37,657 bases of DNA from a virus (Duplodnaviria > Heunggongvirae > Uroviricota > Caudoviricetes), in the IMG/VR virus record IMGVR_UViG_2516143071_000007; one strand, 5' to 3'. The position numbers and the translations under genes are program-made. The notes below the pieces were generated by a model. That model was given only the letters and a program-made list of their open reading frames with translations, was not told the DNA's origin and ran no database searches. Of the stretch, positions 4,560-27,364 are shown piece by piece. The first letter of the stretch is position 1; every line of letters begins with the position of its first letter.

Positions 4560-4770
4560 GCTGACTATACACGCGCACAACCGCGCCAGCGGTTTTTTTG
4601 TGCGTACCGCATCGCCACGTCTTTTTCGCACACGAATTATGGTGGGGCGTATGGGGCCGACTTTGGTCGGGCCGGGTTCGTGTATAGCCGGTTGTGGAAA
4701 CCCTGTACGTCTCACCACCCCGAGTTTTCCACCTCTGGATGGTGAGTTTTCAAAACTTACTATACACGAG
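4560..4770. promoter_or_regulatory. Three copies of CTATACACG in a 320-bp noncoding gap upstream of the replication operon
   Basis: ACTATACACG at 4564-4573 and 4759-4768 (plus), CTATACACG inverted at 4679-4687; no plausible ORF with a ribosome-binding site in the gap. Confidence 0.4.
4579..4600 (+). terminator. Rho-independent terminator candidate
   Basis: AACCGC-GCCA-GCGGTT stem-loop followed by TTTTTTT. Confidence 0.5.
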
Positions 4771-5471: not shown

Positions 5472-8308
5472 GTGCGTTTGCATGGAGCTGGAATGAACCA
5501 CGACCAGCTATTGATCCGGCCAGATTTACGGAGCACAGGCAGGAAACTGAAACCGACCTGCAACGCGCCATCCGTTACTACCTTGAGGCGGACAAAAGGG
5601 CACAGGAAGAACAGGAAGCGAAGAAAGAAGCCTTTTTCGCACAATCCGCCATGGGTAAAAAACTCATGGCATCCCTTGAGGAAGCCGGACAGCGTGAGAA
5701 GCTGGCACAGAGCATCATCAGTAAGCGCCGGGCAACAGAACAAGACCCGGTAGCCCGTGCCTTTGCCACACTGAAGGCGCTTCCCGTTTATCTGCGAGAA
5801 CCTCTGAGCCGCCACCTCTCTTTCCTGCGCAAGAAGCAGGAAGCCGATCGTCAGAAAGGCAAAAAGAGCTGGCAGGCGGAACGCTATGCACGCGGAACCC
5901 TGCGCAAAATATTCGAACGTCTGGATCGCACTGACGGGCGCTGGCTGACACCTGGTTATCGCTCCCTTGCCGGACGCGAACGCCTGGACGATTTGCTTTA
6001 CCTGCCGCAGCTCAACAAACACCAGATACAGACGCTGGCCACCATGACGGCGGCGATGTTCAGCAGCACCTTCGAAAAACTCTGCGATGGCTTTGGCGCG
6101 ACCGATGGCGAGCTGACCATGGATGTAACGCTGAAGACGTATCAGATGCTGGCCCGCATGGCGTTACACCTGCACGCCATGCCTCCACATTATGACGCAC
6201 TGACAACAGACAAAGACCGGAGGAACGAACCAGACACGGAGCTGCTGCCGGGCGCAATCCTTCGCCTGACCTGTGCGGAATGGTGGAAACGCAAACTGTG
6301 GCTGTTACGTTGCGAGTGGAGAGAAGAACAACTCCGCGCCGCCTGTCTGGTTTCCAGAAAAACATCACCCTATCTGAGCCAGGACGCGTTAAGCGAGTTT
6401 CGCGCACAGCGCGAGAAAACACGCGATTTCCTGAAAAGTTTCATGCTGGAAAACGAAGACGGGTTCACGATTGATCTCGAGACAGTGTATTACGCGGGAG
6501 TAAGTAACCCGGTTCACCGTAAGGCAGAAATGATGGCCACCATGAAGGGACTGGAACTTCTGGCCGAAGCCCGTGGCGACAGAGCGGTGTTTCTGACTGT
6601 CACCTGCCCGTCAAAATACCACGCAACAACGGAGAACGGTCATCCGAACCCTAAATGGAACGGGGCCACCATGCGCGACTCCAGCGATTACCTGGTTAAC
6701 ACGTTTTTTGCGGCGGTCCGCAAAAAACTGAACCGCGACGGTCTGCGCTGGTATGGCATCCGCACGGTGGAGCCTCACCATGACGGCACTGTGCACTGGC
6801 ATATGATGGTCTTTGCTCATCCGGAAGAAATCGACAGCATCGTGGCCATCACCCGCGATATTGCCATTCAGGAAGACCGCCACGAGCTGGGCAATGATAT
6901 TACTCCGCGCTTTAAGGTGGAGTATGTCGACGGCTCAAAAGGCACACCAACCAGCTACATCGCCACCTACATCGGAAAGAACCTGGACAGCCGCGCCGTG
7001 GATGGCATCGACCCGAAAACGGGCAAGCCACGCGTTGACCACGAAACCGGAAAATCAATGGCCGAGAGCGTGGAACGCGCCATCGGCTGGGCGCGCCTTC
7101 ACCGGGTCCGCCAGTTCCAGTTCTTTGGTATCCCCTCCCGTCAGGTGTGGCGTGAACTGCGCCGCCTTGCCAGCCAGATGGCACGCAACCCGGAAGGCCC
7201 GCAACGGCTGAAGGATGACGCAATGGACGCGGTACTCGCTGCCGCTGATGCCGGATGTTTTGCCACCTACATTGAGAAACAGGGTGGCGTACTTGTTCCA
7301 CGCAAAGACTACCTGATTCGCACCGCCTACGACCTCGCAGATGAGCTGAACGATTACGGTGAACAGAGCGTACAGATTTACGGGATCTGGTCGCCGCTCA
7401 TTGGGGAGTCTTCCCGCGTATGCACGCATCCGGATAACTGGAAGCTGGTAAGACGCAAACCGGAAGCGGAAGACAGCGCCCGCGAAAATGGTTTTGACCT
7501 TCAGGGCGGCCCTGCCGCCCCTTGGACTCGTGGCAATAACTGTCCCCGTGTACAGGAAACGGACAACAACGGGACAGAACAGCCGGAAGAACGGCCAGCA
7601 CCGTGGCCGCAGCTCCCTGACGGCGTTGATGTGGATGAATGGATGCGCTCACTGAAACGGCACGAACGCCGGGCGCTGATGCGTTCGCTTCGTGACAAAC
7701 AGGCAAAAAACAGCAGTGATGAAATGCAGAGCTGGACACAGAGCCGCAAACAGCAGCGGCCTTTGCCTGATAACCACGAATTACTCGCTAAAGAATGGCG
7801 GGAGTCTGCTGAATCTCTCGGCCTGCATATCGGTGAACAACAGATGCAGCACCTGTTACGGGGCGGCAGTCTGTACGTTGACGGCAGCATCATTGCACCG
7901 CAGGGATTTGAAATTGTACGCAAACCGGATACCCGCCCGGACAGCCGAATCACGCAGCTCTGGCAGCGCCTGAGCCGTAATCATGGCGTAAGCAGCACGG
8001 AGATCCGCCATAACCCGGTCGCCAGCTATCTGACACAGCTGGGGGCATCAGACCCTGAAGCCGCCGCACGCCTGGCATCCACACTTCAGCAGGACCAGAA
8101 CACCATGAAAACACCCGTTACCGTGCTTTCTGACATGCTGCGCGCCATCCGCGACGCAGAGCACGCACAGAGAATCAGTGAAACCACTGAACGCGCCCGC
8201 CGCAAAGCAGACCTGCTGCGGGGTGGCCTGACCAGTGGAAACAAAAAACAGACAGAAACGGGACTCACGAATCCCGTAAATGAGCAAAAAACGCGCAGCG
8301 ATATATGA
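5468..8308 (+). CDS. A: Rolling-circle replication initiator/endonuclease, P2 gpA family
   Basis: HUH motif HWHMMVF and paired tyrosines YIATYIGKN; start at ATG overlapping upstream stop; long C-terminal extension relative to P2 A as I recall it. Confidence 0.85.
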   Translation: MSAFAWSWNEPRPAIDPARFTEHRQETETDLQRAIRYYLEADKRAQEEQEAKKEAFFAQSAMGKKLMASLEEAGQREKLAQSIISKRRATEQDPVARAFATLKALPVYLREPLSRHLSFLRKKQEADRQKGKKSWQAERYARGTLRKIFERLDRTDGRWLTPGYRSLAGRERLDDLLYLPQLNKHQIQTLATMTAAMFSSTFEKLCDGFGATDGELTMDVTLKTYQMLARMALHLHAMPPHYDALTTDKDRRNEPDTELLPGAILRLTCAEWWKRKLWLLRCEWREEQLRAACLVSRKTSPYLSQDALSEFRAQREKTRDFLKSFMLENEDGFTIDLETVYYAGVSNPVHRKAEMMATMKGLELLAEARGDRAVFLTVTCPSKYHATTENGHPNPKWNGATMRDSSDYLVNTFFAAVRKKLNRDGLRWYGIRTVEPHHDGTVHWHMMVFAHPEEIDSIVAITRDIAIQEDRHELGNDITPRFKVEYVDGSKGTPTSYIATYIGKNLDSRAVDGIDPKTGKPRVDHETGKSMAESVERAIGWARLHRVRQFQFFGIPSRQVWRELRRLASQMARNPEGPQRLKDDAMDAVLAAADAGCFATYIEKQGGVLVPRKDYLIRTAYDLADELNDYGEQSVQIYGIWSPLIGESSRVCTHPDNWKLVRRKPEAEDSARENGFDLQGGPAAPWTRGNNCPRVQETDNNGTEQPEERPAPWPQLPDGVDVDEWMRSLKRHERRALMRSLRDKQAKNSSDEMQSWTQSRKQQRPLPDNHELLAKEWRESAESLGLHIGEQQMQHLLRGGSLYVDGSIIAPQGFEIVRKPDTRPDSRITQLWQRLSRNHGVSSTEIRHNPVASYLTQLGASDPEAAARLASTLQQDQNTMKTPVTVLSDMLRAIRDAEHAQRISETTERARRKADLLRGGLTSGNKKQTETGLTNPVNEQKTRSDI

Positions 8309-8353
8309 AGCGCGCACAAAACAGGCAAAAACGGGATTTCAGAATCCCGTAAA
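8257..8353. repeat. Two 24-bp palindrome-containing direct repeats flanking the parM upstream region
   Basis: AAACGGGACTCACGAATCCCGTAAA (8257-8280, inside the 3' end of A) and AAACGGGATTTCAGAATCCCGTAAA (8329-8353); each carries ACGGGA-N7-TCCCGT. Confidence 0.6.
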
Positions 8354-8384
8354 CGATTAATTAATCAACATAAGGAAAAGCGAC

Positions 8385-9344
8385 ATGAAAATTTGTATCG
8401 ACGACGGCTCCACCAACATCAAGCTGGCATGGACTGAGAACGGCGAACGCCGCAACGCCATCAGCCCGAACAGCTTCAAGTCGGAATGGTCTGCGCCGTT
8501 CGGTGGCACGCAGCCCGCGAACTACATGCTTGATGGCGTGCGCTATGGTTTTGATCCGGTCAGCGATCGCTTTGTCCAGACGACCGACACGCAATACCAA
8601 TACAGCGATGTGAATGTCATTGCCATTCATCACGCGCTGGTCAAATCAGGCATCACACCACAGGAGGTGGATGTGGTTGTCACCCTGCCACTGAGCGAGT
8701 ATTTCGACACAAACGCACAGCCGGACATGACCAATATCAACCGCAAAAAAGCGAACGTTATGCGCCCGGTGGAGTACCAGAACGGCGAAGCATTCACTAT
8801 CCGTAACGTACGGGTTATGCCTGAATCCATTCCGGCTGGCTTTAAGGCACTGGCTGACATGAGTCCGTTTGAATCCCTGCTGATTGTGGATTTGGGCGGA
8901 ACCACGCTGGATGTGGCAAAGGTTCAGGGGCAACTGGCAGGTATCAGCCAGGTGTTTTGCGATCCACACGTAGGCGTTTCTCTGATGGCCGATGCCGTAC
9001 TGTCGGTGATGGCCACTAACGGTATGCGCACCAGTCACCACATCGCCAATACCATTATCGAACATCGCCATGATGAAGCCTGGCTGCGCCAGCACATCCA
9101 CAATGACGCGCATTACGCCAGCCTGATGGCGGTTATTCGTGAAAAGGAAGAAACACTGAAACAACGCGTGATCCGCGCGCTGGCGGGTTTTTCGGGTTAC
9201 GGGCGGGTGATGGTTGTCGGTGGTGGGACGGAGATTGTGGCACCCGCTATCCGCGAAGCCTGCGGAGTTAATGCGACTTTCATCGCGGACGGGGTGCCAC
9301 AGTTTGCTCTGGTTAATGGGCTGTACGCAATGGACAAGGAGTAA
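8385..9344 (+). CDS. parM: Actin-like segregation ATPase, ParM/StbA family
   Basis: N-terminal IDDGSTNIKL, SPNSF, YSDVNV, VMPESIPAG, DLGGTTLD, SGY..VMV(V/I)GGG blocks match my recollection of plasmid R1 ParM along the whole length. Confidence 0.8.
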   Translation: MKICIDDGSTNIKLAWTENGERRNAISPNSFKSEWSAPFGGTQPANYMLDGVRYGFDPVSDRFVQTTDTQYQYSDVNVIAIHHALVKSGITPQEVDVVVTLPLSEYFDTNAQPDMTNINRKKANVMRPVEYQNGEAFTIRNVRVMPESIPAGFKALADMSPFESLLIVDLGGTTLDVAKVQGQLAGISQVFCDPHVGVSLMADAVLSVMATNGMRTSHHIANTIIEHRHDEAWLRQHIHNDAHYASLMAVIREKEETLKQRVIRALAGFSGYGRVMVVGGGTEIVAPAIREACGVNATFIADGVPQFALVNGLYAMDKE

Positions 9345-9348
9345 ACCA

Positions 9349-9663
9349 ATGACGACACCAACCAGACGGATAAGTTTCTATCTGAAGCCAGTCGCCGTCA
9401 ATAGTGAACGGGAGGCGTGTAATTACCTCGACAGCCTGCCAGCCTCTGAACGCAGCCGCGCGCAACGCGCGGCCTTTCTGGCCGGGCTGGCACTCATAAA
9501 ACGCGATCCTGCATTTGCCTATTGGTTGGCCGAATGGCCGGAAGAAGGAGCTGCGCCAGCCAAGAATAATATTCAGAGTAAATATGCCAGCGCACCTGCC
9601 ACCGGAAGCAATCACAGCACTAGCGAGATAAGAAAGAACATTCAGTCATTTTTCCCAGAGTGA
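9349..9663 (+). CDS. parR: ParR/StbB-like centromere-binding adaptor, about 104 aa
   Basis: Directly downstream of parM with AGGAG; N-terminal RRISFYLKP...LDSLP..ERSR..RAAFLAGLAL resembles R1 ParR ribbon-helix-helix N-terminus from memory. Confidence 0.6.
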   Translation: MTTPTRRISFYLKPVAVNSEREACNYLDSLPASERSRAQRAAFLAGLALIKRDPAFAYWLAEWPEEGAAPAKNNIQSKYASAPATGSNHSTSEIRKNIQSFFPE

Positions 9664-11937: not shown

Positions 11938-13688
11938 CAGAACTCCATAACCGTGAAACGCTCGTTTTCTCCTTCGCCGCCAATCGGTTCGTTAATGACA
12001 GCAAGCATGGTTGCCCACGCAAGGTCGCCGTGGCTGATCCCCCTCGCGCGGTCCGTTTCGTAAGTGATAAAGCCGCCCGGTGTTTTCACCTTACGCACGG
12101 CGTTAAAGGCCGCGACCAGCTCACGTTCGGCGCGATCGTATTCCCACCGCCCGGCACGCATTATTTGCAGCATTTTCAGTACCAGCGACCGTTTTGATGA
12201 CAGCGTGAAGGTGTACGGAATAGCAGCAGGGAAAAACCGCTTCACTATCTGATAAACAGCCTCCCCGTTCCCGCCCGTCACATCAATGCCGATGTGTTCC
12301 ACGTTGTAGCGATACGTGAACTCTTCAATGACTCTGGCCTGTTCTTCAAACTCCAGCCCCTGAACGCGTCGCGTCTCCACCGTTCGAAAACGGCCACCAG
12401 GAACAGCCGGAGGAACCACCACGGACACAGCGCCGCTGTCGCCGTTGCCACTACTGCCGTTTGCGTCATACCCAATCCATACCGGACGATTCCCCATCGG
12501 TCGGGGAGCAAAAGGTTTCCAGTCTTTCCAGTCGTCGTATCCGTCAACACCGCAGCCAATCAGGATATTCAGGTTAAATGCCGATTCCCCTTCGCGGACA
12601 AACTCACACATATAGAGATTGAGGAACTCGTCTTCGGTGTTTTCATCACGAATTTCGTCGATATCGGTGTGTTTCCAGCCGTGATTAACCACATCTTCCA
12701 GCGTGACAATTTGCCGCCACGTCCGGTCAGGGCAGATAAGCCCGTTATGCAGCGTTTTCCAGTCCACAGAAAAACGCTGGCGTTTATGCGAGGCCTTTTT
12801 CTCGTTCCAGCGGTCGCCGTTCCAGTAGGCGTATGCCTCGTGCGTTTCGGTGGATGGCGTGGAGAAGTAGGTGCGCCGCAGTCCGCTGAGGGTTGCCATA
12901 GCGCCAGCCACCTTGCGCAGTTCAGCAAAGCGACTGACCCAGAAAAATTCATCAAAATAAAAATTGCCCGTATAGGACTGTGCCGACGCAGCAGAAGTGC
13001 CGAGAAAATGCAGCTCTGCGCCGTTGGAGAGGATGATTTTATCGCCCCCTTTCAGCTCCACATCAACTTCAGCCGCGGCCTTCTGAATAATGCTTTTAAA
13101 CTGGAACGCCTGACGACGCGACGCAGACAAAAAAATCTGGTTACGCTGGTAAGGTTGCGCCACATCGTCACGCAGCGCCATCAGCAGAGCTTCCTGTGCA
13201 AAATACCAGGTCGCCCCAATCTGTCGGGATTTCAGGATCATCCTGTTACGTATCCCGGCTTCCCTGCAAAGGGTCAGGGAGTCAAACCAGCCCCGCTGAT
13301 GCCACTCCAGCCTGCTGATGATTTTTTCCCGCAGTGCGGAAATCTGTTCCGGCGTGAAATGATTTTTGAGTTTTTTCGCCCGGCCTTTCTTTCCTGCGGC
13401 CATCACATCCGGCTGGCCATCATGCAGCTTTTTAAGCTGCCGGGTCAGCAGGTCTATTTCCTTAAAGTCACCGCCTGTTTTATTCTGTTTTTCAGTAAGC
13501 TGGATGAGGCGCGCATCGATGGACTGCGTGACACGCTGCACGGGTGGCGTTTCATCCCACTGGTCGCGTTTTTTCCACGCATAAATCGTGTTCGGGTTTA
13601 TTCCCATCAGACGTGATATTTCTGCGGGCGGATAACCCTGCCAGTAAAGTTGCCGCGCACGCTGGCGCACAAAAGCGTCCTGAATCAT
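11937..13688 (-). CDS. P: Terminase large (ATPase) subunit, P2 gpP family
   Basis: 583 aa; GGGGGAG Shine-Dalgarno; transcribed divergently from O as in P2. Confidence 0.85.
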   Translation of the reverse strand: MIQDAFVRQRARQLYWQGYPPAEISRLMGINPNTIYAWKKRDQWDETPPVQRVTQSIDARLIQLTEKQNKTGGDFKEIDLLTRQLKKLHDGQPDVMAAGKKGRAKKLKNHFTPEQISALREKIISRLEWHQRGWFDSLTLCREAGIRNRMILKSRQIGATWYFAQEALLMALRDDVAQPYQRNQIFLSASRRQAFQFKSIIQKAAAEVDVELKGGDKIILSNGAELHFLGTSAASAQSYTGNFYFDEFFWVSRFAELRKVAGAMATLSGLRRTYFSTPSTETHEAYAYWNGDRWNEKKASHKRQRFSVDWKTLHNGLICPDRTWRQIVTLEDVVNHGWKHTDIDEIRDENTEDEFLNLYMCEFVREGESAFNLNILIGCGVDGYDDWKDWKPFAPRPMGNRPVWIGYDANGSSGNGDSGAVSVVVPPAVPGGRFRTVETRRVQGLEFEEQARVIEEFTYRYNVEHIGIDVTGGNGEAVYQIVKRFFPAAIPYTFTLSSKRSLVLKMLQIMRAGRWEYDRAERELVAAFNAVRKVKTPGGFITYETDRARGISHGDLAWATMLAVINEPIGGEGENERFTVMEF

Positions 13689-13842
13689 TGCTCCCCCTGA
13701 GTAATTACAGGAAGATTACCCGCGCGCGAAACCGTTCTCCTTAACCCCCTGTTCTGGCCGTTTTCTTACAACAAAAGCCCTTTGTATCAGCCTGTTACGC
13801 TTTGCCATCATGACTGAAGAACCAGTCAGAGGGGCAAAAACT
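13689..13842. promoter_or_regulatory. Divergent late promoter region (P/Q leftward, O-operon rightward)
   Basis: Intergenic region between divergently transcribed P and O; Ogr-type activator site expected but not resolved by eye. Confidence 0.45.
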
Positions 13843-14679
13843 ATGGCTAATGAAAAAAAGACATCCCGCAAAAAGTTTCGCGTGGCTGTCTCCGGATCAA
13901 CTGTTGATGGCCGTGAAATCAGTCCGGTGCATCTGCGTGAAGCCGCCGAGAACTTCAACCCGGATGTTTACGCTGCCCGCGTGAACGTTGAGCACTATCT
14001 CTCGCCATGCCCGTCAAGCGAATTTTCCGCAATGGGCGATGTCACCGCACTGAGTACGGAAGACATTACGGAAGGTCCGCTGGCCGGACGTACTGCGCTG
14101 TATGCAGAAATCGAACCGACCGAGCGCATGAAGCAGCTTGTCGCGGACGGCAAGAAAATCTATTCCAGTATCGAACTGCACCCGCAGTTCTCCGTTAACG
14201 GGCGCGCCTATCTGGTCGGGCTGGCGATGACCGACACCCCGGCAAGCCTGGGCACTGAGCGCCTGAAATTCACGGCACAGCAACGTCAGGCGGTAATGAC
14301 GTTCAACAGTGTCCAGGGTGAAGCGCCGCTTATCTCCGAAGCCATCGAGTCTGAAATCATCGAAATGGCAGAACAACGCCAGGAAGAAGGCACCCAGTGG
14401 TTTAACCACGTAATGGGGATTATTGGCCGTGGCCGCAAAGCGGATGACGCCAGTTTTTCCCGTATTCAGGAAGCGGTGGAAGGCGTCGCAACGTCACAGG
14501 CCGACATTATCGACCGTTTTAATGTGCTGGAAACCCGCCATCAGCAGGACCGCCAGAAAATTACGTCACTGACCACAGAGCTGGCAGCACTGAAGGAAAA
14601 ACTGCGCACGCAGGACGGCGATCCGCAGAACCGGTTCACCGCAACAGGTGCAGCCTCCGACCAGCTGGCTGACTTCTGA
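13843..14679 (+). CDS. O: Capsid scaffolding protein, P2 gpO family
   Basis: MANEKKTSRKKFRVAVSG... resembles recalled P2 gpO N-terminus and YLVGLAMTD.PASLGTE block; AGAGGGG upstream. Confidence 0.8.
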   Translation: MANEKKTSRKKFRVAVSGSTVDGREISPVHLREAAENFNPDVYAARVNVEHYLSPCPSSEFSAMGDVTALSTEDITEGPLAGRTALYAEIEPTERMKQLVADGKKIYSSIELHPQFSVNGRAYLVGLAMTDTPASLGTERLKFTAQQRQAVMTFNSVQGEAPLISEAIESEIIEMAEQRQEEGTQWFNHVMGIIGRGRKADDASFSRIQEAVEGVATSQADIIDRFNVLETRHQQDRQKITSLTTELAALKEKLRTQDGDPQNRFTATGAASDQLADF

Positions 14680-17399: not shown

Positions 17400-17723
17400 G
17401 TGAGCACCATTCAAACAGGGATCACAGAGCAGGTTATTGCGTGGCTCTTTGACCACCTGCCAACGGTGTATGCAGTAGGCGCGGCGGTCAGCATTTCCGC
17501 GCTGATGAGTCTTTATGACGGACGAACACTGGTTCAGACCGTAACGGGATCGCTGGCGTGCGGCGTTCTTGCCATGGCCGTGGCCGGGTCGTTGCGCTTC
17601 TTCGGTTTTCCTGAAGATGCCGTGACGTTTATCGGCGCATCAATCGGTTTTATGGGCGCAGAGAAAGCACGCGACAAGGTTATTGCGGCCTTTAATCGCA
17701 GGGTGAAGGAGAAGGACGAATGA
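17400..17723 (+). CDS. Putative holin, about 107 aa, GTG start
   Basis: Two to three hydrophobic helices; immediately precedes the endolysin with ATGA coupling; GGGGGGAG upstream; not obviously P2 Y-like. Confidence 0.5.
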   Translation: MSTIQTGITEQVIAWLFDHLPTVYAVGAAVSISALMSLYDGRTLVQTVTGSLACGVLAMAVAGSLRFFGFPEDAVTFIGASIGFMGAEKARDKVIAAFNRRVKEKDE

Positions 17724-18112
17724 GCAACACATTTAAATTCAGCAGCCGGAGCGAAAAGAATTTGCAGGGCGTAAATCCTGATCTGGTGAAAGTGACCCGA
17801 CGGGCGCTGGAAATCTCGGAAGTGGATTTTGGTATCACCGAAGGATTGCGCGGTCGTTATCGTCAGAAGCAGCTCGTGACCACAGGCAAGAGCCAGACCA
17901 TGAACAGTCGCCATCTCACAGGGCATGCCGTGGATGTTGTGGCTTATGTTGGCAGCCAGGTGTCATGGGAATGGCCGCTGTACGAAAAAATCGCAGCAGC
18001 ATTCAGACAGGCCAGCCGGGAACTGAATATTCCGGTGGAATGGGGCGGCGACTGGAAGACCCTGAAAGACGGACCACATTTTCAGTTACCACACGGAGCC
18101 TATCCGGCATGA
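17720..18112 (+). CDS. Endolysin, M15-family zinc peptidase type (L-alanyl-D-glutamate peptidase-like)
   Basis: H-x-x-G-x-A-x-D (SRHLTGHAVDV) and WGGDW....DGPHFQL motifs; position between holin and spanins. Confidence 0.7.
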   Translation: MSNTFKFSSRSEKNLQGVNPDLVKVTRRALEISEVDFGITEGLRGRYRQKQLVTTGKSQTMNSRHLTGHAVDVVAYVGSQVSWEWPLYEKIAAAFRQASRELNIPVEWGGDWKTLKDGPHFQLPHGAYPA

Positions 18113-18516
18113 AGCTCTGGCCCACGCTGGGTGTCGCTTTCCTTCTGATTGCCGCATGGGGAACATCCATGCGTCTGTCATGGTCGCTTGGCCGGGAGAA
18201 CGCCAGAAACGAAGCACAGGCCAGCACCCTGAAAAGTACCGTCGACACACTGAATATCATCAGTGCCGGGGTACAGGATATGCAGCAGGTGCTGGCGCAA
18301 CTCCGCGTGGAAAATCAACAGCGAAATCAGGACGGAGAGGCCAGACGTGAACAGCTACGCAACGATATTGCAAAAGATGAATGCGCCCACGCTTTGCCTG
18401 ACGCTCGTTTTACTGACAGGTTGCGCAGGCACGCAGAACGCGCCAGGGCCAGCGCCGTCAGTCCGGCTTATACCGCAGACGCTGACCATGCCGGTAACGC
18501 CTCCCCCCTTCCCTGA
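18109..18516 (+). CDS. i-spanin, Rz / P2 LysB-like
   Basis: N-terminal TM (LWPTLGVAFLLIAAW) then charged coiled-coil; ATGA coupled to the endolysin. Confidence 0.65.
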   Translation: MKLWPTLGVAFLLIAAWGTSMRLSWSLGRENARNEAQASTLKSTVDTLNIISAGVQDMQQVLAQLRVENQQRNQDGEARREQLRNDIAKDECAHALPDARFTDRLRRHAERARASAVSPAYTADADHAGNASPLP

Positions 18517-18658
18517 CCCACCCACATGGGGAAACCTCGGAATATGGGGCGACCGCCTTCTGGATGCACTGGAAACCTGTAACGCGGATAAACGGGCCAT
18601 TGCTGAACTGGATAAGAGAATAGCCGAACTGACACACCAGACGGGAGTAACACAATGA
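18377..18658 (+). CDS. o-spanin, Rz1 / P2 LysC-like lipoprotein
   Basis: Starts in the +1 frame inside Rz; signal MNAPTLCLTLVLLTGCAG with LTGC lipobox; Pro-rich; extends past the Rz stop. Confidence 0.65.
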   Translation: MNAPTLCLTLVLLTGCAGTQNAPGPAPSVRLIPQTLTMPVTPPPFPDPPTWGNLGIWGDRLLDALETCNADKRAIAELDKRIAELTHQTGVTQ

Positions 18659-20535
18659 CCAGTAAGAACTTTGCACTGATTACAGCCATGACACAGGCTG
18701 AACTGACTCAAAAGGTGAATGAACATCTTGCGAAAGGGTGGCATCTTCAGGGGGAGACGCGGGTTGCCTACGAACCCGGCACCCCGTGGTATCTAATGCA
18801 GGCAATGGTGGCCGATGGCACTACAGACATCTCACCTGATTCCCCCCAGCACGGCAGCGTGCCGGAGTGGTATTACGTGGTGGTACTTGCTGGTCAATCC
18901 AATGCCATGTCATATGGTGATGGAATGCCGCTGCCGGATTCTTACGATGCGCCCCACCCACGCATTAAGCAACTGGCCCGTCGCAACACAGTGACTCCCG
19001 GTGGTAAAGCATGCGCATTTAACGACATCATTCCGGCAGACCACTGCCTGCATGATGTTCAGGATATGAGCGCACTGAATCATCCGAAGGCAGACCTGAG
19101 CAAAGGGCAGTACGGCTGTGTCGGCCAGGGCTTACATATTGCCAAAAAACTGCTTCCGTATATCCCGAATAACGCGGGGATCCTGCTGGTACCATGCTGT
19201 CGTGGTGGTTCGGCATTCACCCAGGGCGCGGAGGGGACATTCAGTGCGGACACGGGGGCCAGCCAGGATTCGGCACGCTGGGGTGTGGGTAAACCGTTAT
19301 ATCAGGACCTGATCGCACGCACCAAAGCGGCATTACAGAAGAACCCGAAAAATGTGTTGCTGGCGGTGTGCTGGATGCAGGGCGAATTTGACATGAGCGC
19401 TGCCACCTACGCACAGCAACCGGACCTGTTCACGGCCATGCTGAAGCAGTTCCGTACTGACCTTTCCGGATTTAACGCGCAGTGCCATGGCGGCAGTGCT
19501 GCAGTTGTACCGTGGATTTGTGGCGACACGACATATTACTGGAAAAACACATACGGCACACAGTATGACTCCGTCTACGGCGCGTACAAAAACAGGGAGA
19601 GCGACAACGTTTTCTTTGTGCCGTTCATGACCGACGGTAACGGCAACAACACGCCCACCAACTTACCGGCAGAAGACCCGGATATTGCTGATGCAGGTTA
19701 TTACGGCGCGCAATCCCGTAGTAATGGTAATTGGGTATCGTCAAATCGTCCGACACATTTCAGTTCATGGGCGCGCAGGGGCATTATTTCGGATCGCCTG
19801 GCAACCGCTATTCTGAACGCAGTTGGTCGAACCAGCGCCTTCATCAGCGGTACCGCACCGGAGATTAAACCCTCGCCCGGCGGCGACACTCCATCGGGGC
19901 CGTCTGATGGTGACACATCCGTTCGTACAGTCTCCCTGCTGCCGACAGCCGGAGAGGCTGCTGCGCAGGGCTGGACCATCACCGGCGGCAGTGTTGCGCT
20001 GGAAGATGGTGTGTTTAAGGTTACCAAGCAGAGCAATAAAACCTGGTCCCTGATGCATCCGGTGGATGACGCAGTCTCCCTGCTGACACGGGGTGGCAGA
20101 CTGAGCTGTAAGTTTCGACTGTCAGGCGCACTGACCAACAACCAGTTCGGTCTGGGAATTTATCTGTATACCGATGTAGCGTTACCTGACGTCGTGGCGA
20201 TGACCGGGACTGGTAACCCGTTCCTGATGTCGTTCTTCACCCAGACCACAGACGGCAAACTGAATCTGATGCATCACAAGAAAGCCGGAAACACAAAGTT
20301 GGGCGAGTTCGGGAATTACAGTAACGACTGGCAGACGCTGGAGCTGGTGTTCACCGCCGGCAGTGCCACGGTTACTCCGAAACTGAATGGAGTGGCTGGC
20401 CCGGCATTCCAGGTCATAAAAGACAGTCTGACACTGGGGCTGAATGCGCTGACGTTAACTGATATCACTAAAAATGCCGCGTACGGCGTCGATATCGGCA
20501 GCCTGGTGCTGGAAATCAATAATCCCGCAGCATAA
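18655..20535 (+). CDS. NanS-p-like sialate O-acetylesterase (DUF1737 N-domain, SGNH/SASA esterase core, C-terminal lectin-like domain)
   Basis: AGQSNAMSYG matches the GQSNM catalytic-serine motif of the sialate O-acetylesterase family; N-terminus resembles DUF1737; ATGA coupling to Rz1 stop. Confidence 0.65.
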   Translation: MTSKNFALITAMTQAELTQKVNEHLAKGWHLQGETRVAYEPGTPWYLMQAMVADGTTDISPDSPQHGSVPEWYYVVVLAGQSNAMSYGDGMPLPDSYDAPHPRIKQLARRNTVTPGGKACAFNDIIPADHCLHDVQDMSALNHPKADLSKGQYGCVGQGLHIAKKLLPYIPNNAGILLVPCCRGGSAFTQGAEGTFSADTGASQDSARWGVGKPLYQDLIARTKAALQKNPKNVLLAVCWMQGEFDMSAATYAQQPDLFTAMLKQFRTDLSGFNAQCHGGSAAVVPWICGDTTYYWKNTYGTQYDSVYGAYKNRESDNVFFVPFMTDGNGNNTPTNLPAEDPDIADAGYYGAQSRSNGNWVSSNRPTHFSSWARRGIISDRLATAILNAVGRTSAFISGTAPEIKPSPGGDTPSGPSDGDTSVRTVSLLPTAGEAAAQGWTITGGSVALEDGVFKVTKQSNKTWSLMHPVDDAVSLLTRGGRLSCKFRLSGALTNNQFGLGIYLYTDVALPDVVAMTGTGNPFLMSFFTQTTDGKLNLMHHKKAGNTKLGEFGNYSNDWQTLELVFTAGSATVTPKLNGVAGPAFQVIKDSLTLGLNALTLTDITKNAAYGVDIGSLVLEINNPAA

Positions 20536-20558
20536 GGAAGAGCAGGAGAGCAAAACAG

Positions 20559-21026
20559 ATGCTTAAGACAAACAGTCTGCGAGAGTCCATGCTTCATGGG
20601 TGTCGGTGGTGCCAGGCTAATCCCGAGAAATTCACCATTTTCGTGGAGAGCGGCAACATTGAAACGACCGGAGAAGCGCCCTCGTTTGTTTACCGCTATC
20701 AGATGGTGATGTTTGTCATGGATTACGCCGGAGAGCTGGACGACCTCACGCTGCCGCTGCTGGCGTGGTTATCCGAAAATCAGCCACAGTTGTTGCTCAA
20801 TCCGGAGCGTAATCAGGACATCAAATTTTCTGCCGTTATCAATGACGATGACAGCGCCGATCTCCTGTTTACGCTCCCCCTGCGGGAACGCGTTCGCATC
20901 ACGCGCAGCAGTCAGGGCACACCGCAGGCAGAACACCTGCCGGAGCCAAAACCCCGCCTGCCATCTTCCGAAGGCGACTGGTCGCATGTATTCCAGGATG
21001 TGACGTGGGGTGAAAGCGATGGATAA
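20559..21026 (+). CDS. R: Tail completion protein, P2 gpR family
   Basis: 155 aa, synteny, CAGGAGAG Shine-Dalgarno. Confidence 0.75.
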   Translation: MLKTNSLRESMLHGCRWCQANPEKFTIFVESGNIETTGEAPSFVYRYQMVMFVMDYAGELDDLTLPLLAWLSENQPQLLLNPERNQDIKFSAVINDDDSADLLFTLPLRERVRITRSSQGTPQAEHLPEPKPRLPSSEGDWSHVFQDVTWGESDG

Positions 21027-21654
21027 GGCATTCACCCGCGTGGATGAAACCTTTGAGGACATCCGCGACAGCCTGAATCAGCAGGCCATCAATAACATCG
21101 CCAGAAAGCTGGCACAGGATTTACGCCGCGCCCAGCAGGCGCGTATCCGGTCACAGAAAGCGCCGGACGGGACCGCGTGGACACCACGCAGACGCCGCGT
21201 AACCCGGATACAGGAGCGCATTCGCTTTATCTGGAATAACGAAGCACGCACGCTGAAAAACTGGCATCACGACACGGGGAAATACGGGCGAACCATTACC
21301 GGGTGGGATGAGGATAAAAACAATATCCGCACGTTTTACCGGGATGACATCGACCGCTTTCTGGAAATACGCACCCGGCGCATCAACCAGGACAGCACAA
21401 AGCGCGTCCCCATGTTCGTAAAACTGCGCACCGCCCGCTACCTGAAAGCCCGTGCAGATGCTTCCGGTGTGACGGTGGGTTACAGCGGCGTGGCCGCACG
21501 TATTGCCCGCGTTCATCAGTTCGGTGAGCGCGATCAGGTTGCGCCGGGCATTTTCACCGATTACCCGGTACGTGAGCTGTTGGGCATCAGTCAGGCAGAT
21601 GAACGCCTGATTTATAACACGGTGCTGGGCCGGATTGCGGAGGCTGTACGGTGA
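21010..21654 (+). CDS. S: Tail completion/virion morphogenesis protein, P2 gpS-like
   Basis: Synteny between R and V; overlaps both neighbours; start could be GTG 21010 or ATG 21019. Confidence 0.7.
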   Translation: MKAMDKAFTRVDETFEDIRDSLNQQAINNIARKLAQDLRRAQQARIRSQKAPDGTAWTPRRRRVTRIQERIRFIWNNEARTLKNWHHDTGKYGRTITGWDEDKNNIRTFYRDDIDRFLEIRTRRINQDSTKRVPMFVKLRTARYLKARADASGVTVGYSGVAARIARVHQFGERDQVAPGIFTDYPVRELLGISQADERLIYNTVLGRIAEAVR

Positions 21655-26758: not shown

Positions 26759-27364
26759 CTATTTATACAATACAACACCGCTCTTTTTTGTTATATATGT
26801 GCAGTTCGATGGTATATCTTTATTTATAAAAGACATTGCACCTATTTTTACATTATCCCCAATTTTACGTGATAATCCAATGATGCAACAATTGGCTCCG
26901 ATATCAACGTTATTACCAATTTTTACTCTTGAACCAGGCATGTCACCATCTATCTGTCCAATGGTAGTATTCTGTCGTAACACCAGATTTTCACCAGCAT
27001 CAACAGCAAAATGAACAACAATTCCAGCATGATGGGGAATTGTTAACCCTTTTCCAATATTTGCGCCCAATCCAATTTCACAACCAAATTTGTTAATTAT
27101 TTTACCGTTTAACTTTTTGGCTGCTTTCTTATGTAATTTATTACCATTAATATACATTTCGTTAGCCAACCGCCACCAGAAAAGGAAATTCCGGTTACGC
27201 TGTTTTTTCTCTCTTAAAAGCCTCCAGATATCCATACGTTTCCGCCGAATTACTTCATATTTCCAGAAGTTTTTTAAATTAGTAGAGTCCCCAAATAAAA
27301 CAAAGTGAATTGCCATTAAGTAAGACAGCACGATAATCTCCTTAATTATTATTTCAGACCACAC
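26759..27364 (-). CDS. Hexapeptide-repeat (left-handed beta-helix) O-acetyltransferase, CysE/WcaB-like; AT-rich cargo
   Basis: IGxxxxIG hexapeptide repeats (IGLGANIGKGLTIPHHAGIVV..., IGNNVDIGANCCIIG, IGDNVKIGAMS); start uncertain (27364 or internal ATG 27316); strongly AT-rich. Confidence 0.65.
   Translation of the reverse strand: MWSEIIIKEIIVLSYLMAIHFVLFGDSTNLKNFWKYEVIRRKRMDIWRLLREKKQRNRNFLFWWRLANEMYINGNKLHKKAAKKLNGKIINKFGCEIGLGANIGKGLTIPHHAGIVVHFAVDAGENLVLRQNTTIGQIDGDMPGSRVKIGNNVDIGANCCIIGLSRKIGDNVKIGAMSFINKDIPSNCTYITKKSGVVLYK

Follow-up and report, generated by a model that had tools for sequence, protein, structure and literature searches.

A nanS-p allele at the lysC/R junction of a P88-like prophage and its P2-type DUF1737 domain

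Prophage-encoded NanS-p esterases let pathogenic Escherichia coli use the O-acetylated sialic acids of mucus, and carrying more copies of them may bring an advantage in competition. The lambdoid members (L0105/Z1466 of 933W, vb_24B_21 or gp84 of phi24B, and 'yjhS' of an Stx1a phage) combine a DUF1737 domain, a SASA domain and a lectin-like C-terminus, and their gene lies in the late phage operon beside the lysis genes, between Q/stx and holin S. NanS (YjhS), encoded in the nanCMS operon of the E. coli chromosome, consists of a single domain and lacks both DUF1737 and a lectin domain. In O104:H4 C227-11 phi-cu each of the five NanS-p is reported to yield an active esterase and to allow growth on Neu5,9Ac2 (PMC8065619, a review summarising Saile 2018). 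The phi24B esterase gp84 is docked on the capsid by its DUF1737 and is cleaved after about residue 57, beside an S-S-P motif (10.64898/2026.04.10.717836). P2-like phages also carry accessory cargo (morons) in genomes that are otherwise conserved and P2-type. One phage may have such cargo while its close relative lacks it, an example being the cdt-V operon of P2-like prophages in E. coli O157 (cited in PMC8065619).

The stretch of DNA considered here (the window, 37,657 nucleotides) is a P88-like (Xuanwuvirus, P2-type) prophage inserted between btuC and ihfA, and it matches chromosomes of the E. coli O104:H4 outbreak at 100% identity. It carries a gene with the same three domains as the lambdoid NanS-p and, like them, in a late operon beside lysis genes; its place, however, is after lysC and ahead of tail gene R, and the operon is that of a P2-type myovirus, presumably Ogr-controlled.

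The lysC/R junction and the late operon

The window prophage is collinear with the inducible phage P88 and all its late genes, including D, are intact. A defective prophage with a truncated D, as the 266-aa RefSeq call would imply, was rejected because tblastn gives a full-length D at 33221-34324, 97% identical to that of P88; an inverted tail operon was rejected too, the orientation being the same in P88. A hexapeptide-repeat O-acetyltransferase is encoded beside the tail-fibre genes. The P2-type genes L, X, holin, endolysin, lysB and lysC are found upstream of nanS-p, and R and S downstream, as follows.

17400..17723, + strand: holin
17720..18112, + strand: M15 peptidase endolysin
18109..18516, + strand: lysB (Rz-like i-spanin, DUF2570)
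18377..18658, + strand: lysC (Rz1-like o-spanin lipoprotein, MNAPTLCLTLVLLTGC...); Pfam LysC PF23793, E 2.5e-13; RefSeq start 18398
18603..20600, + strand: cassette with a new lysC 3' end, nanS-p and a new R 5' end, replacing 93 bp of P88 (local blastn against P88)
18643..18647, + strand: Shine-Dalgarno sequence GGGAG, 7 nt upstream of the nanS-p ATG (read from the raw sequence)
18655..20535, + strand: nanS-p allele, ORF (with its stop) for a sialate O-acetylesterase of 626 aa and three domains; full-length phrog_143 match, 1081 bits
20559..21026, + strand: tail completion gene R; PF06891 P2_Phage_GpR, E 2e-38
21019..21654, + strand: gene S (tail completion / virion morphogenesis), which by synteny closes the O operon of P2

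The ORF listing of the window gives a single + strand ORF with an ATG start at 18655..20535, exactly the 626-aa gene described in the initial annotation. Its proposed coupling to the Rz1 stop agrees with the sequence, in which the nanS-p ATG (18655-18657) overlaps the TGA (18656-18658) of the Rz1-like lysC in an ATGA. Tail gene R begins 23 nt past the nanS-p stop, at 20559, so that the predicted position ahead of R is correct, and the location between lysC and R, collinear with O-N-M-L-X-lysis-R-S, supports the suggested wiring into a P2-type late/lysis operon.

The same position had been called empty in P2. Indeed, P2 lysC (8202-8492) overlaps R (8455-8922) with nothing in between, and P88, the closest sequenced phage, likewise has no gene there. 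By local blastn, the homology between the window and P88 stops at 18602 and restarts at 20601; the lysC/R junction thus holds a 1,998-bp cassette in place of 93 bp, with a gene absent from both P2 and P88. No compositional anomaly of the cassette was detected (55% GC against 57% in the flanking late genes). Unlike other P2-like morons, nanS-p does not occupy one of the usual intergenic hot spots but interrupts the O operon where lysC and R overlap, and it brings a Shine-Dalgarno sequence of its own and a stop-start overlap.

In the P2 reference these genes form the O operon, whose terminator comes only beyond S. Scanning positions 18000 to 21000 of the window revealed no terminator-like site on the + strand, and promoter-like sites, as candidates for an own promoter of nanS-p, occurred at chance level only. 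The strict Ogr dyad TGT-N12-ACA is absent from 13680-13850, upstream of gene O, so that late-promoter control of nanS-p is a prediction from synteny. The ogr gene itself is present at 37066-37326, and a 2.7-kb DUF3800 + IS5 insertion between gene D and ogr could weaken late activation in this prophage.

Domains and catalytic residues

The protein can be divided into three domains and two linkers.

18655..18822, + strand: N-terminal DUF1737 domain, P2-type variant, aa 1-56, with remodelled loop RVAYEPGTPWY; Pfam E 3e-7
18823..18858, + strand: linker 1, aa 57-68, TDISPDSPQHGS, Ser/Pro-rich, hypervariable
18859..19839, + strand: SASA / SGNH type II esterase domain, aa 69-395; match to NanS 3PT5, E 3e-123 over aa 69-388
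18898-18900, + strand: catalytic Ser82 (next to the oxyanion residue Gln81)
19756-19758, + strand: catalytic His368
19840..19929, + strand: linker 2, aa 396-425, Pro/Ser/Gly-rich, between the two PDB-matched regions (alignment A2)
19930..20532, + strand: C-terminal lectin-like jelly-roll domain (DUF6645); 6YP6 E 4e-30, Pfam DUF6645 E 2e-19

In Pfam, DUF1737 (PF08410) matches aa 4-53 at E 3e-7, its 30.5 bits exceeding the gathering cut-off of 24, SASA (PF03629) matches aa 75-271 at E 7e-13, and DUF6645 spans aa 477-587 at E 2e-19. The GQSN motif corresponds to aa 80-83 (codons 18892-18903). Judged by these matches, the predicted DUF1737, SASA, DUF6645 and GQSN assignments are far beyond chance; those of the esterase and lectin domains are settled because the protein matches both 3PT5 and the structure of a NanS-p C-terminal domain, 6YP6 (E 4e-30). 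The NanS-p architecture claimed earlier (a DUF1737-like N-terminus, GQSN and a lectin-like C-terminus) is accordingly the one found.

The roles of the SGNH catalytic residues were taken from PMC9063846 and transferred to the nanS-p protein via the alignment with NanS 3PT5. Ser82, Gln81 and His368 are invariant in alignment A2. By these alignments, the esterase core of the protein is a homologue of NanS and belongs to SGNH type II, with Ser82 as nucleophile, His368, and Gln81 in the oxyanion position. Its catalytic residues are identical to those of chromosomal NanS, over the whole aligned core (aa 69-388, E 3e-123); unlike NanS, it is a three-domain protein encoded in a prophage late operon. 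The catalytic Ser, His and Gln and the block IV motif RPTH of the prophage 86 allele are present as well. In the C-terminal domain, the aromatic residues proposed for the sugar site (Y510/Y515/Y540/F611) have F498/Y503/F528/L594 as their counterparts.

The profile search against NanS and NanS-p that had been suggested as a check recovered the SASA/SGNH domain with its catalytic Ser and His. The closest homologues are NanS and NanS-p, not tail-associated depolymerases, and a tailspike esterase or other tail-associated depolymerase was rejected after searching Pfam and PHROG, where no tail-fibre, tailspike or baseplate-attachment match appeared. Compared with the Stx1a-phage allele Stx1_14040, the window protein is 89% identical in the esterase domain and 84% in the C-terminal domain; for phi24B gp84 the corresponding values are 70% and 36%. 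The gene is confirmed as a real, intact copy of the already described prophage enzyme NanS-p.

Linker 1 shares only 1 of 12 residues with the P2-type allele of OkiPb, against 93-95% identity in the flanking domains. The equivalent linker of gp84 is its proposed cleavage site (10.64898/2026.04.10.717836).

Distribution, selection and mosaicism

The novelty implied by the initial annotation was overestimated. The exact protein is already public (WP_000202135.1, E. coli O104:H4; O3K_RS11555 in 2011C-3493). Among 5,426 complete E. coli genomes the lysC/R junction is occupied in 373, and 689 have an empty P88-type junction; three phage records show the occupied form too. P88-like phages with nanS-p include vB_EcoM-569R5/705R2, and NanS-p of any type was counted in 352 phage records. 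The cassette is seen in many serotypes, including O104:H4, ST131 O25b:H4, O103:H2 and O111:H21. The arrangement is common and ordinary, its unusual N-terminal domain aside.

This DUF1737 domain is the under-described part of the allele. It is 22-38% identical to the lambdoid versions, with a different loop, and it occurs in 3 of 50,697 phage records, all P88-like. Among E. coli genomes the P2-type module was counted in 376, against 373 with the lysC-R context; the variant is essentially confined to P2-type surroundings. The N-terminal part is conserved at 99% or more in 367 genomes, and a second lineage, 57% identical in DUF1737, has the same lysC-adjacent layout. When the N-terminal 72 aa were used as a query, a word-indexed protein search matched only near-identical fragments, and exhaustive phmmer gave 10 matches in 1.84 billion representatives. 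The nearest standalone DUF1737 relatives are encoded in early regions of unrelated phages, and their genomic contexts were uninformative. No deposited structure of DUF1737 or of the phi24B capsid was found in the PDB.

Between diverged alleles, dN/dS ranges from 0.08 to 0.23 over all three domains (0.08 for DUF1737 and 0.10-0.16 for SASA), values that indicate purifying selection on every domain of the protein. Identity along the gene is uneven. Against the ST131 P2-type allele it is 98-100% over 18400-19099 and 76-91% over 19100-20099; against an Stx1a phage it is 94-99% over 19100-19399 and 75-89% elsewhere. The esterase/lectin body is thus a recombination mosaic with Stx-phage nanS-p alleles. 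The body exchanges segments by recombination with the nanS-p alleles of co-resident lambdoid (Stx) prophages, and the N-terminal module remains with the P2-type phage.

Proposed function and alternative explanations

The explanation that we favour, and hold to be probable from sequence and synteny, is that the window carries a NanS-p allele on a cassette of accessory cargo (a moron) set into the lysC/R junction of a P88-like prophage, made in the late operon, freed at lysis and deacetylating mucin sialic acid. With no promoter or terminator of its own, nanS-p would be made only with the Ogr-dependent late transcription of the O operon (O-N-M-L-X-holin-endolysin-lysB/lysC-nanS-p-R-S). The N-terminus is the DUF1737 domain and should include no signal peptide; the enzyme would build up in the cytoplasm and exit at holin/endolysin/spanin lysis. 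Outside the cell it would take 9-O-acetyl groups off Neu5,9Ac2 on mucin glycans, and the deacetylated sialic acid could then be cleaved and fed into the Nan pathway of sibling lysogens that survive. Release at lysis and a benefit to siblings would be in line with the hypothesis published for NanS-p (PMC8065619). In chromosomes of the outbreak lineage the esterase region has homology to 5 places, so that the window allele is needed to reach the five O104:H4 NanS-p; it is very probably one of the five active enzymes of PMC8065619.

Simple release as a soluble enzyme may be an incomplete picture, because the phi24B homologue gp84 is a virion protein. A rival explanation, which we regard as unlikely, is that the P2-type DUF1737 docks NanS-p hexamers on the gpN capsid of the P88-like myovirus. 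The esterase/lectin body would then be carried on the head and later shed, helping the virion to bind or traverse O-acetylated sialomucin; lysis release would still occur, with the phage particle as primary beneficiary. In favour of docking, the capsid-bound part of gp84 is its DUF1737 (10.64898/2026.04.10.717836), and in both proteins a Ser/Pro linker (DISPDSP here) directly follows a conserved Gly (Gly54 in gp84, Gly55 here). The anchor loop has been remodelled, the variant of the N-terminal module is a distinct one seen only with P2-type phages, the second lineage shares the lysC-adjacent layout, and DUF1737 is under purifying selection (dN/dS 0.08) while the body recombines freely. However, this exclusivity and invariance are also explained neutrally, by a module too diverged from lambdoid copies to recombine, and the nearest standalone relatives belong to early regions of unrelated phages. 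The loop itself differs from that of gp84, whose 'tooth' Tyr42 is not conserved in the alignment and falls on Thr43 of the window protein; Tyr39, Trp45 and Tyr46 lie within the remodelled loop. To our knowledge, the T=7 P2-type shell has no flat three-fold-axis hexon, and we know of no decoration protein on P2-like heads; both points count against docking. Capsid association has been seen in a T=9 podovirus, where gp84 binds only the flat three-fold-axis hexon (10.64898/2026.04.10.717836), whereas the host of the window gene is a T=7 P2-type myovirus.

A co-variation test bears on the same question. The P2-type and the Traversvirus-type DUF1737 variant each go with a single capsid type of their own, but one lambdoid type is shared by head modules that are unrelated to each other, one with lambda gpE and one with an HK97-like protease-MCP fusion. 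A strict one-to-one pairing of DUF1737 type with capsid type was therefore not upheld. Docking on P2-type heads is possible, with partial support from this test. The wider model, of similarly low probability in our estimate, is that NanS-p is a modular 'anchor plus cargo', in which a DUF1737 head-docking anchor would have been swapped according to the type of phage, with the P2-type variant serving gpN capsids, and the esterase/lectin cargo would be shuffled among co-resident prophages.

Still less probable is an enzyme that modifies the phage receptor, acting on O-acetylated bacterial surface polysaccharide (O antigen, a K capsule such as O-acetylated polysialic acid, or colanic acid) rather than on host mucin, and so aiding adsorption or release of progeny phage. 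The possibility was raised in PMC8065619, the enzyme is co-produced with virion and lysis proteins, and the prophage's O-acetyltransferase gene adjoins the tail-fibre genes. On the other hand, nanS-p has no tail-fibre, tailspike or baseplate-attachment domain, its catalytic domain shares 70-89% identity with alleles for which activity on Neu5,9Ac2 and mucin glycans has been reported, and the spread of the cassette over many serotypes argues against one specific bacterial polysaccharide as target. A functionless passenger, a recombination remnant hitch-hiking in the P2-type operon and merely tolerated, is very improbable: the 689 empty junctions indicate that the cassette is dispensable and several further nanS-p copies lie on the same chromosome, but the 626-aa ORF and its catalytic residues are intact, 367 genomes conserve the N-terminal part at 99% or above, dN/dS is 0.08-0.23 in each domain, and the GC content is near that of the flanking late genes.

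Returning to the favoured reading, that of a moron-borne NanS-p freed at lysis, the window allele extends NanS-p beyond Stx/lambdoid phages, to a common P2-type prophage. About 7% of complete E. coli genomes carry this prophage, those of ST131 and further non-STEC lineages among them. The mosaic of domains also shows that pieces of nanS-p pass between prophages of different families within one cell. If the anchor-plus-cargo model were true, the heads of P88-like myoviruses would bear, and shed, an esterase for mucin sialates, which would be the first P2-type capsid decoration protein and a second, independent virion-borne NanS-p. Should the P2-specific N-terminal module be a capsid anchor, the picture of a public-good enzyme released at lysis would shift towards a virion-borne device for interaction with mucus.

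Context of nanS-p in the P2-type late operon

The window holds a complete P88-like (Xuanwuvirus, Peduoviridae) prophage with all late genes intact; its sequence is found, at 100% identity, between btuC and ihfA in chromosomes of the 2011 outbreak lineage of E. coli O104:H4. It is collinear with P88, its closest sequenced phage, at 91-97% identity outside a few segments. At the lysC/R junction P88 homology ends at 18602, in the 3' end of lysC, and restarts at 20601, 42 nt into R, so that 93 bp of P88 give way to 1,998 bp; the swapped cassette supplies ~18 codons at the end of lysC and 14 at the start of R, both unlike P88. The ORF listing of the window gives nanS-p as a single open reading frame:

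18655-20535, + strand, nanS-p, ATG start, 626 aa

Start and stop codons overlap at its 5' end, the nanS-p ATG occupying 18655-18657 and the TGA of lysC, the upstream Rz1-like o-spanin gene, 18656-18658. A Shine-Dalgarno sequence GGGAG (18643-18647) lies 7 nt 5' of the ATG. Upstream, the order is P2-type (head completion L, tail X, holin, M15 endolysin, lysB, lysC), and tail completion genes R and S follow downstream. The initial annotation had described a 626-aa gene coupled to the Rz1 stop and preceding tail gene R, a position empty in P2, and all these details were borne out: in P2, lysC overlaps R, both belonging to the O operon with its terminator after S. Around nanS-p no terminator-like sites were found on the + strand and promoter-like sites occurred at chance frequency only; from synteny we infer that nanS-p is co-transcribed with the late operon. 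A search for the strict Ogr dyad (TGT-N12-ACA) over 13680-13850, upstream of gene O, gave no match.

Some gene starts deserve comment. RefSeq starts lysC at 18398, while the ATG at 18377 gives the full lipoprotein signal (MNAPTLCLTLVLLTGC; window 18377-18658). Gene D (33221-34330) is full length by tblastn, 365 aa being aligned at 97% identity to P88; the RefSeq version (266 aa from 33530, with a small pseudogene fragment adjoining) probably starts too late.

Other segments also depart from P88. A 2.7-kb insertion (34331-37024) runs from directly after the gene D stop (34330) to 41 bp upstream of ogr, and may uncouple ogr from tail-operon read-through and so affect late-gene activation. In the integrase/immunity region (1-2351) no similarity to P88 DNA could be detected, which indicates a different integration and immunity module.

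596-1570, - strand, integrase
1620-1931, - strand, HTH repressor
34422-35591, - strand, DUF3800 gene in the 2.7-kb insertion
35849-36829, IS5-family ISKpn26 transposase in the 2.7-kb insertion
37066-37326, ogr

The prophage carries, as P88 does, ParM-type segregation/partition genes (8385-9663) and a hok/gef toxin gene (37474-37614), plasmid-like maintenance functions in an integrated P2-type prophage. At the place where P88 carries a DNA invertase and an invertible fibre segment, next to the tail-fibre genes, lies a 189-aa hexapeptide-repeat O-acetyltransferase (26759-27331, - strand), annotated 'serine O-acetyltransferase' and matching CysE in the beta-helix part only; acetyltransferase and de-O-acetylase in one prophage make a curious pairing.

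Identity and proposed action of the esterase

Three Pfam domains score over their gathering scores:

aa 4-53, DUF1737 (E 3e-7)
aa 75-271, SASA (E 7e-13)
aa 477-587, DUF6645 (E 2e-19)

PHROG 143 covers the protein end to end (1081 bits). Searching PDB sequences, NanS/YjhS (3PT5) matched aa 69-388 (E 3e-123) and 6YP6, the crystallised C-terminal lectin-like domain of NanS-p, aa 431-623 (E 4e-30). NanS catalysis uses Ser19 and His301, with an oxyanion hole of Gln18 and a Gly and without a catalytic Asp (PMC9063846). Mapped through the 3PT5 alignment (chain index offset by 11), these residues correspond to Ser82 (GQSN), His368 (RPTH) and Gln81, none of which varies when three lambdoid NanS-p proteins are aligned with the window protein. 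Of the four aromatics proposed to bind sugar in vb_24B_21, the NanS-p (gp84) of lambdoid phage phi24B, three are conservatively kept as F498, Y503 and F528, and the fourth, F611, is replaced by L594. The architecture proposed at first, with a DUF1737 N-terminus, GQSN motif and long lectin-like C-terminus, is thus found in the protein; the SASA fold is present and the closest homologues are NanS and NanS-p, not tail depolymerases. These comparisons show the product to be a NanS-type enzyme.

Of the readings considered, the published NanS-p model moved to a P2-type phage has the best support and agrees with the interpretation in the initial annotation; timing, release and benefit are inferred. 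NanS-p would be made in the cytoplasm from the late operon and set free at lysis, and would then de-O-acetylate mucin sialic acids, with a gain for sibling lysogens.

Mosaic gene body and P2-type N-terminal module

Identity to the window protein by domain

Stx1a phage Stx1_14040: N-terminal 38%, esterase 89%, C-terminal 84%
phi24B gp84: N-terminal 22%, esterase 70%, C-terminal 36%

DNA similarity of Stx phages to the window starts only at 18861. The ST131 P2-type allele is 98-100% identical over 18400-19099 and 76-91% over the remainder. Identity to the Stx1a phage rises to 94-99% over 19100-19399 and is 75-89% around this patch; the pattern indicates that P2-type and lambdoid alleles have recombined in the gene body. 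The dN/dS ratio is 0.10-0.16 in the esterase domain, 0.23-0.34 in the C-terminal domain (full-length comparisons) and 0.08 in the N-terminal domain (dS 0.41, 56 codons).

Lambdoid NanS-p N-termini are nearly identical among themselves over the first ~34 residues. The N-terminal 72 aa of the window protein match three P88-like records only among 50,697 phage records, and exhaustive phmmer returned 10 proteins only among 1.84 billion representatives. The N-terminal DNA occurs in 376 complete E. coli genomes, against 373 with full P2-type context; the one divergent copy examined has P2-type context too. The nearest relative, at 57% identity, is encoded on a metagenomic contig ordered lysozyme-type endolysin, lysB, lysC, DUF1737-SASA, a second, diverged P2-type lineage of identical layout. 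On this contig (ENA ERZ1309100, 1625 bp), covered 1.6x, DUF1737 and SASA are read in different frames, which reflects a true frameshift or a sequence error. Linker 1, which joins DUF1737 to the esterase domain, is hypervariable: between the window (18823-18858) and another P2-type allele, OkiPb (4665-4700), it is almost wholly different at equal length (TTDISPDSPQHGSV vs ATETPSEPLPNNKT), and the flanking domains are 93-95% identical.

A preprint (bioRxiv 10.64898/2026.04.10.717836) describes gp84 as a virion protein whose DUF1737 binds as a hexamer in the hexon at the centre of every T=9 facet, anchored by a loop with Tyr42, the esterase being cleaved off after about residue 57. By analogy, the P2-type module might dock to the head, which we consider unlikely. 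Its P2-specific occurrence, its selective constraint and its remodelled loop (RVAYEPGTPWY) with a Ser/Pro linker after it would fit such a role. Docking would predict that anchor type follows capsid type. The Traversvirus and P2 forms of DUF1737 each go with a single capsid type of their own, but one form is shared by PhiR5_1, with a lambda gpE/gpD head, and Stx1_14040, with an HK97-like protease-MCP fusion, whose capsid proteins have no sequence relationship. N-terminal exclusivity also has a neutral account, divergence from lambdoid copies too great to recombine. The T=7 shell of P2 is not known to have a flat hexon on the three-fold axis of the kind bound by gp84.

Occurrence and prior knowledge

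The novelty first suggested for nanS-p in a P2-type operon did not hold. The protein is public (RefSeq WP_000202135.1, 'DUF6645 domain-containing protein'; YjhS in UniRef), occurs on 269 contigs and falls in a cluster that has 1,558 members at 90% identity. With both junctions required to be covered, the lysC-nanS-p-R arrangement was counted in 373 of 5,426 complete E. coli genomes, including O104:H4, ST131, O103:H2, O111:H21 and bovine isolates; the empty P88-type junction is found in 689. Three phage records have the arrangement (PV468777, ON470599 and ON470623) and each ends inside nanS-p. A multi-copy gene of this kind probably interrupts assemblies or prophage predictions, which would leave the arrangement under-represented in phage databases.

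According to a review (PMC8065619, citing Saile 2018), five NanS-p of O104:H4 C227-11 phi-cu were analysed, and each was an active esterase that allowed growth on Neu5,9Ac2. Since homology to the esterase region is found at five places in outbreak-lineage chromosomes, the window allele is very probably one of these five and already characterised. Our literature search found no paper linking NanS-p with P2-like phages. The enzyme family and its function are therefore known and the arrangement is common, the phage-type context alone being under-described; what remains of interest is the mosaic make-up of the gene, domain by domain, and its P2-type DUF1737 module.
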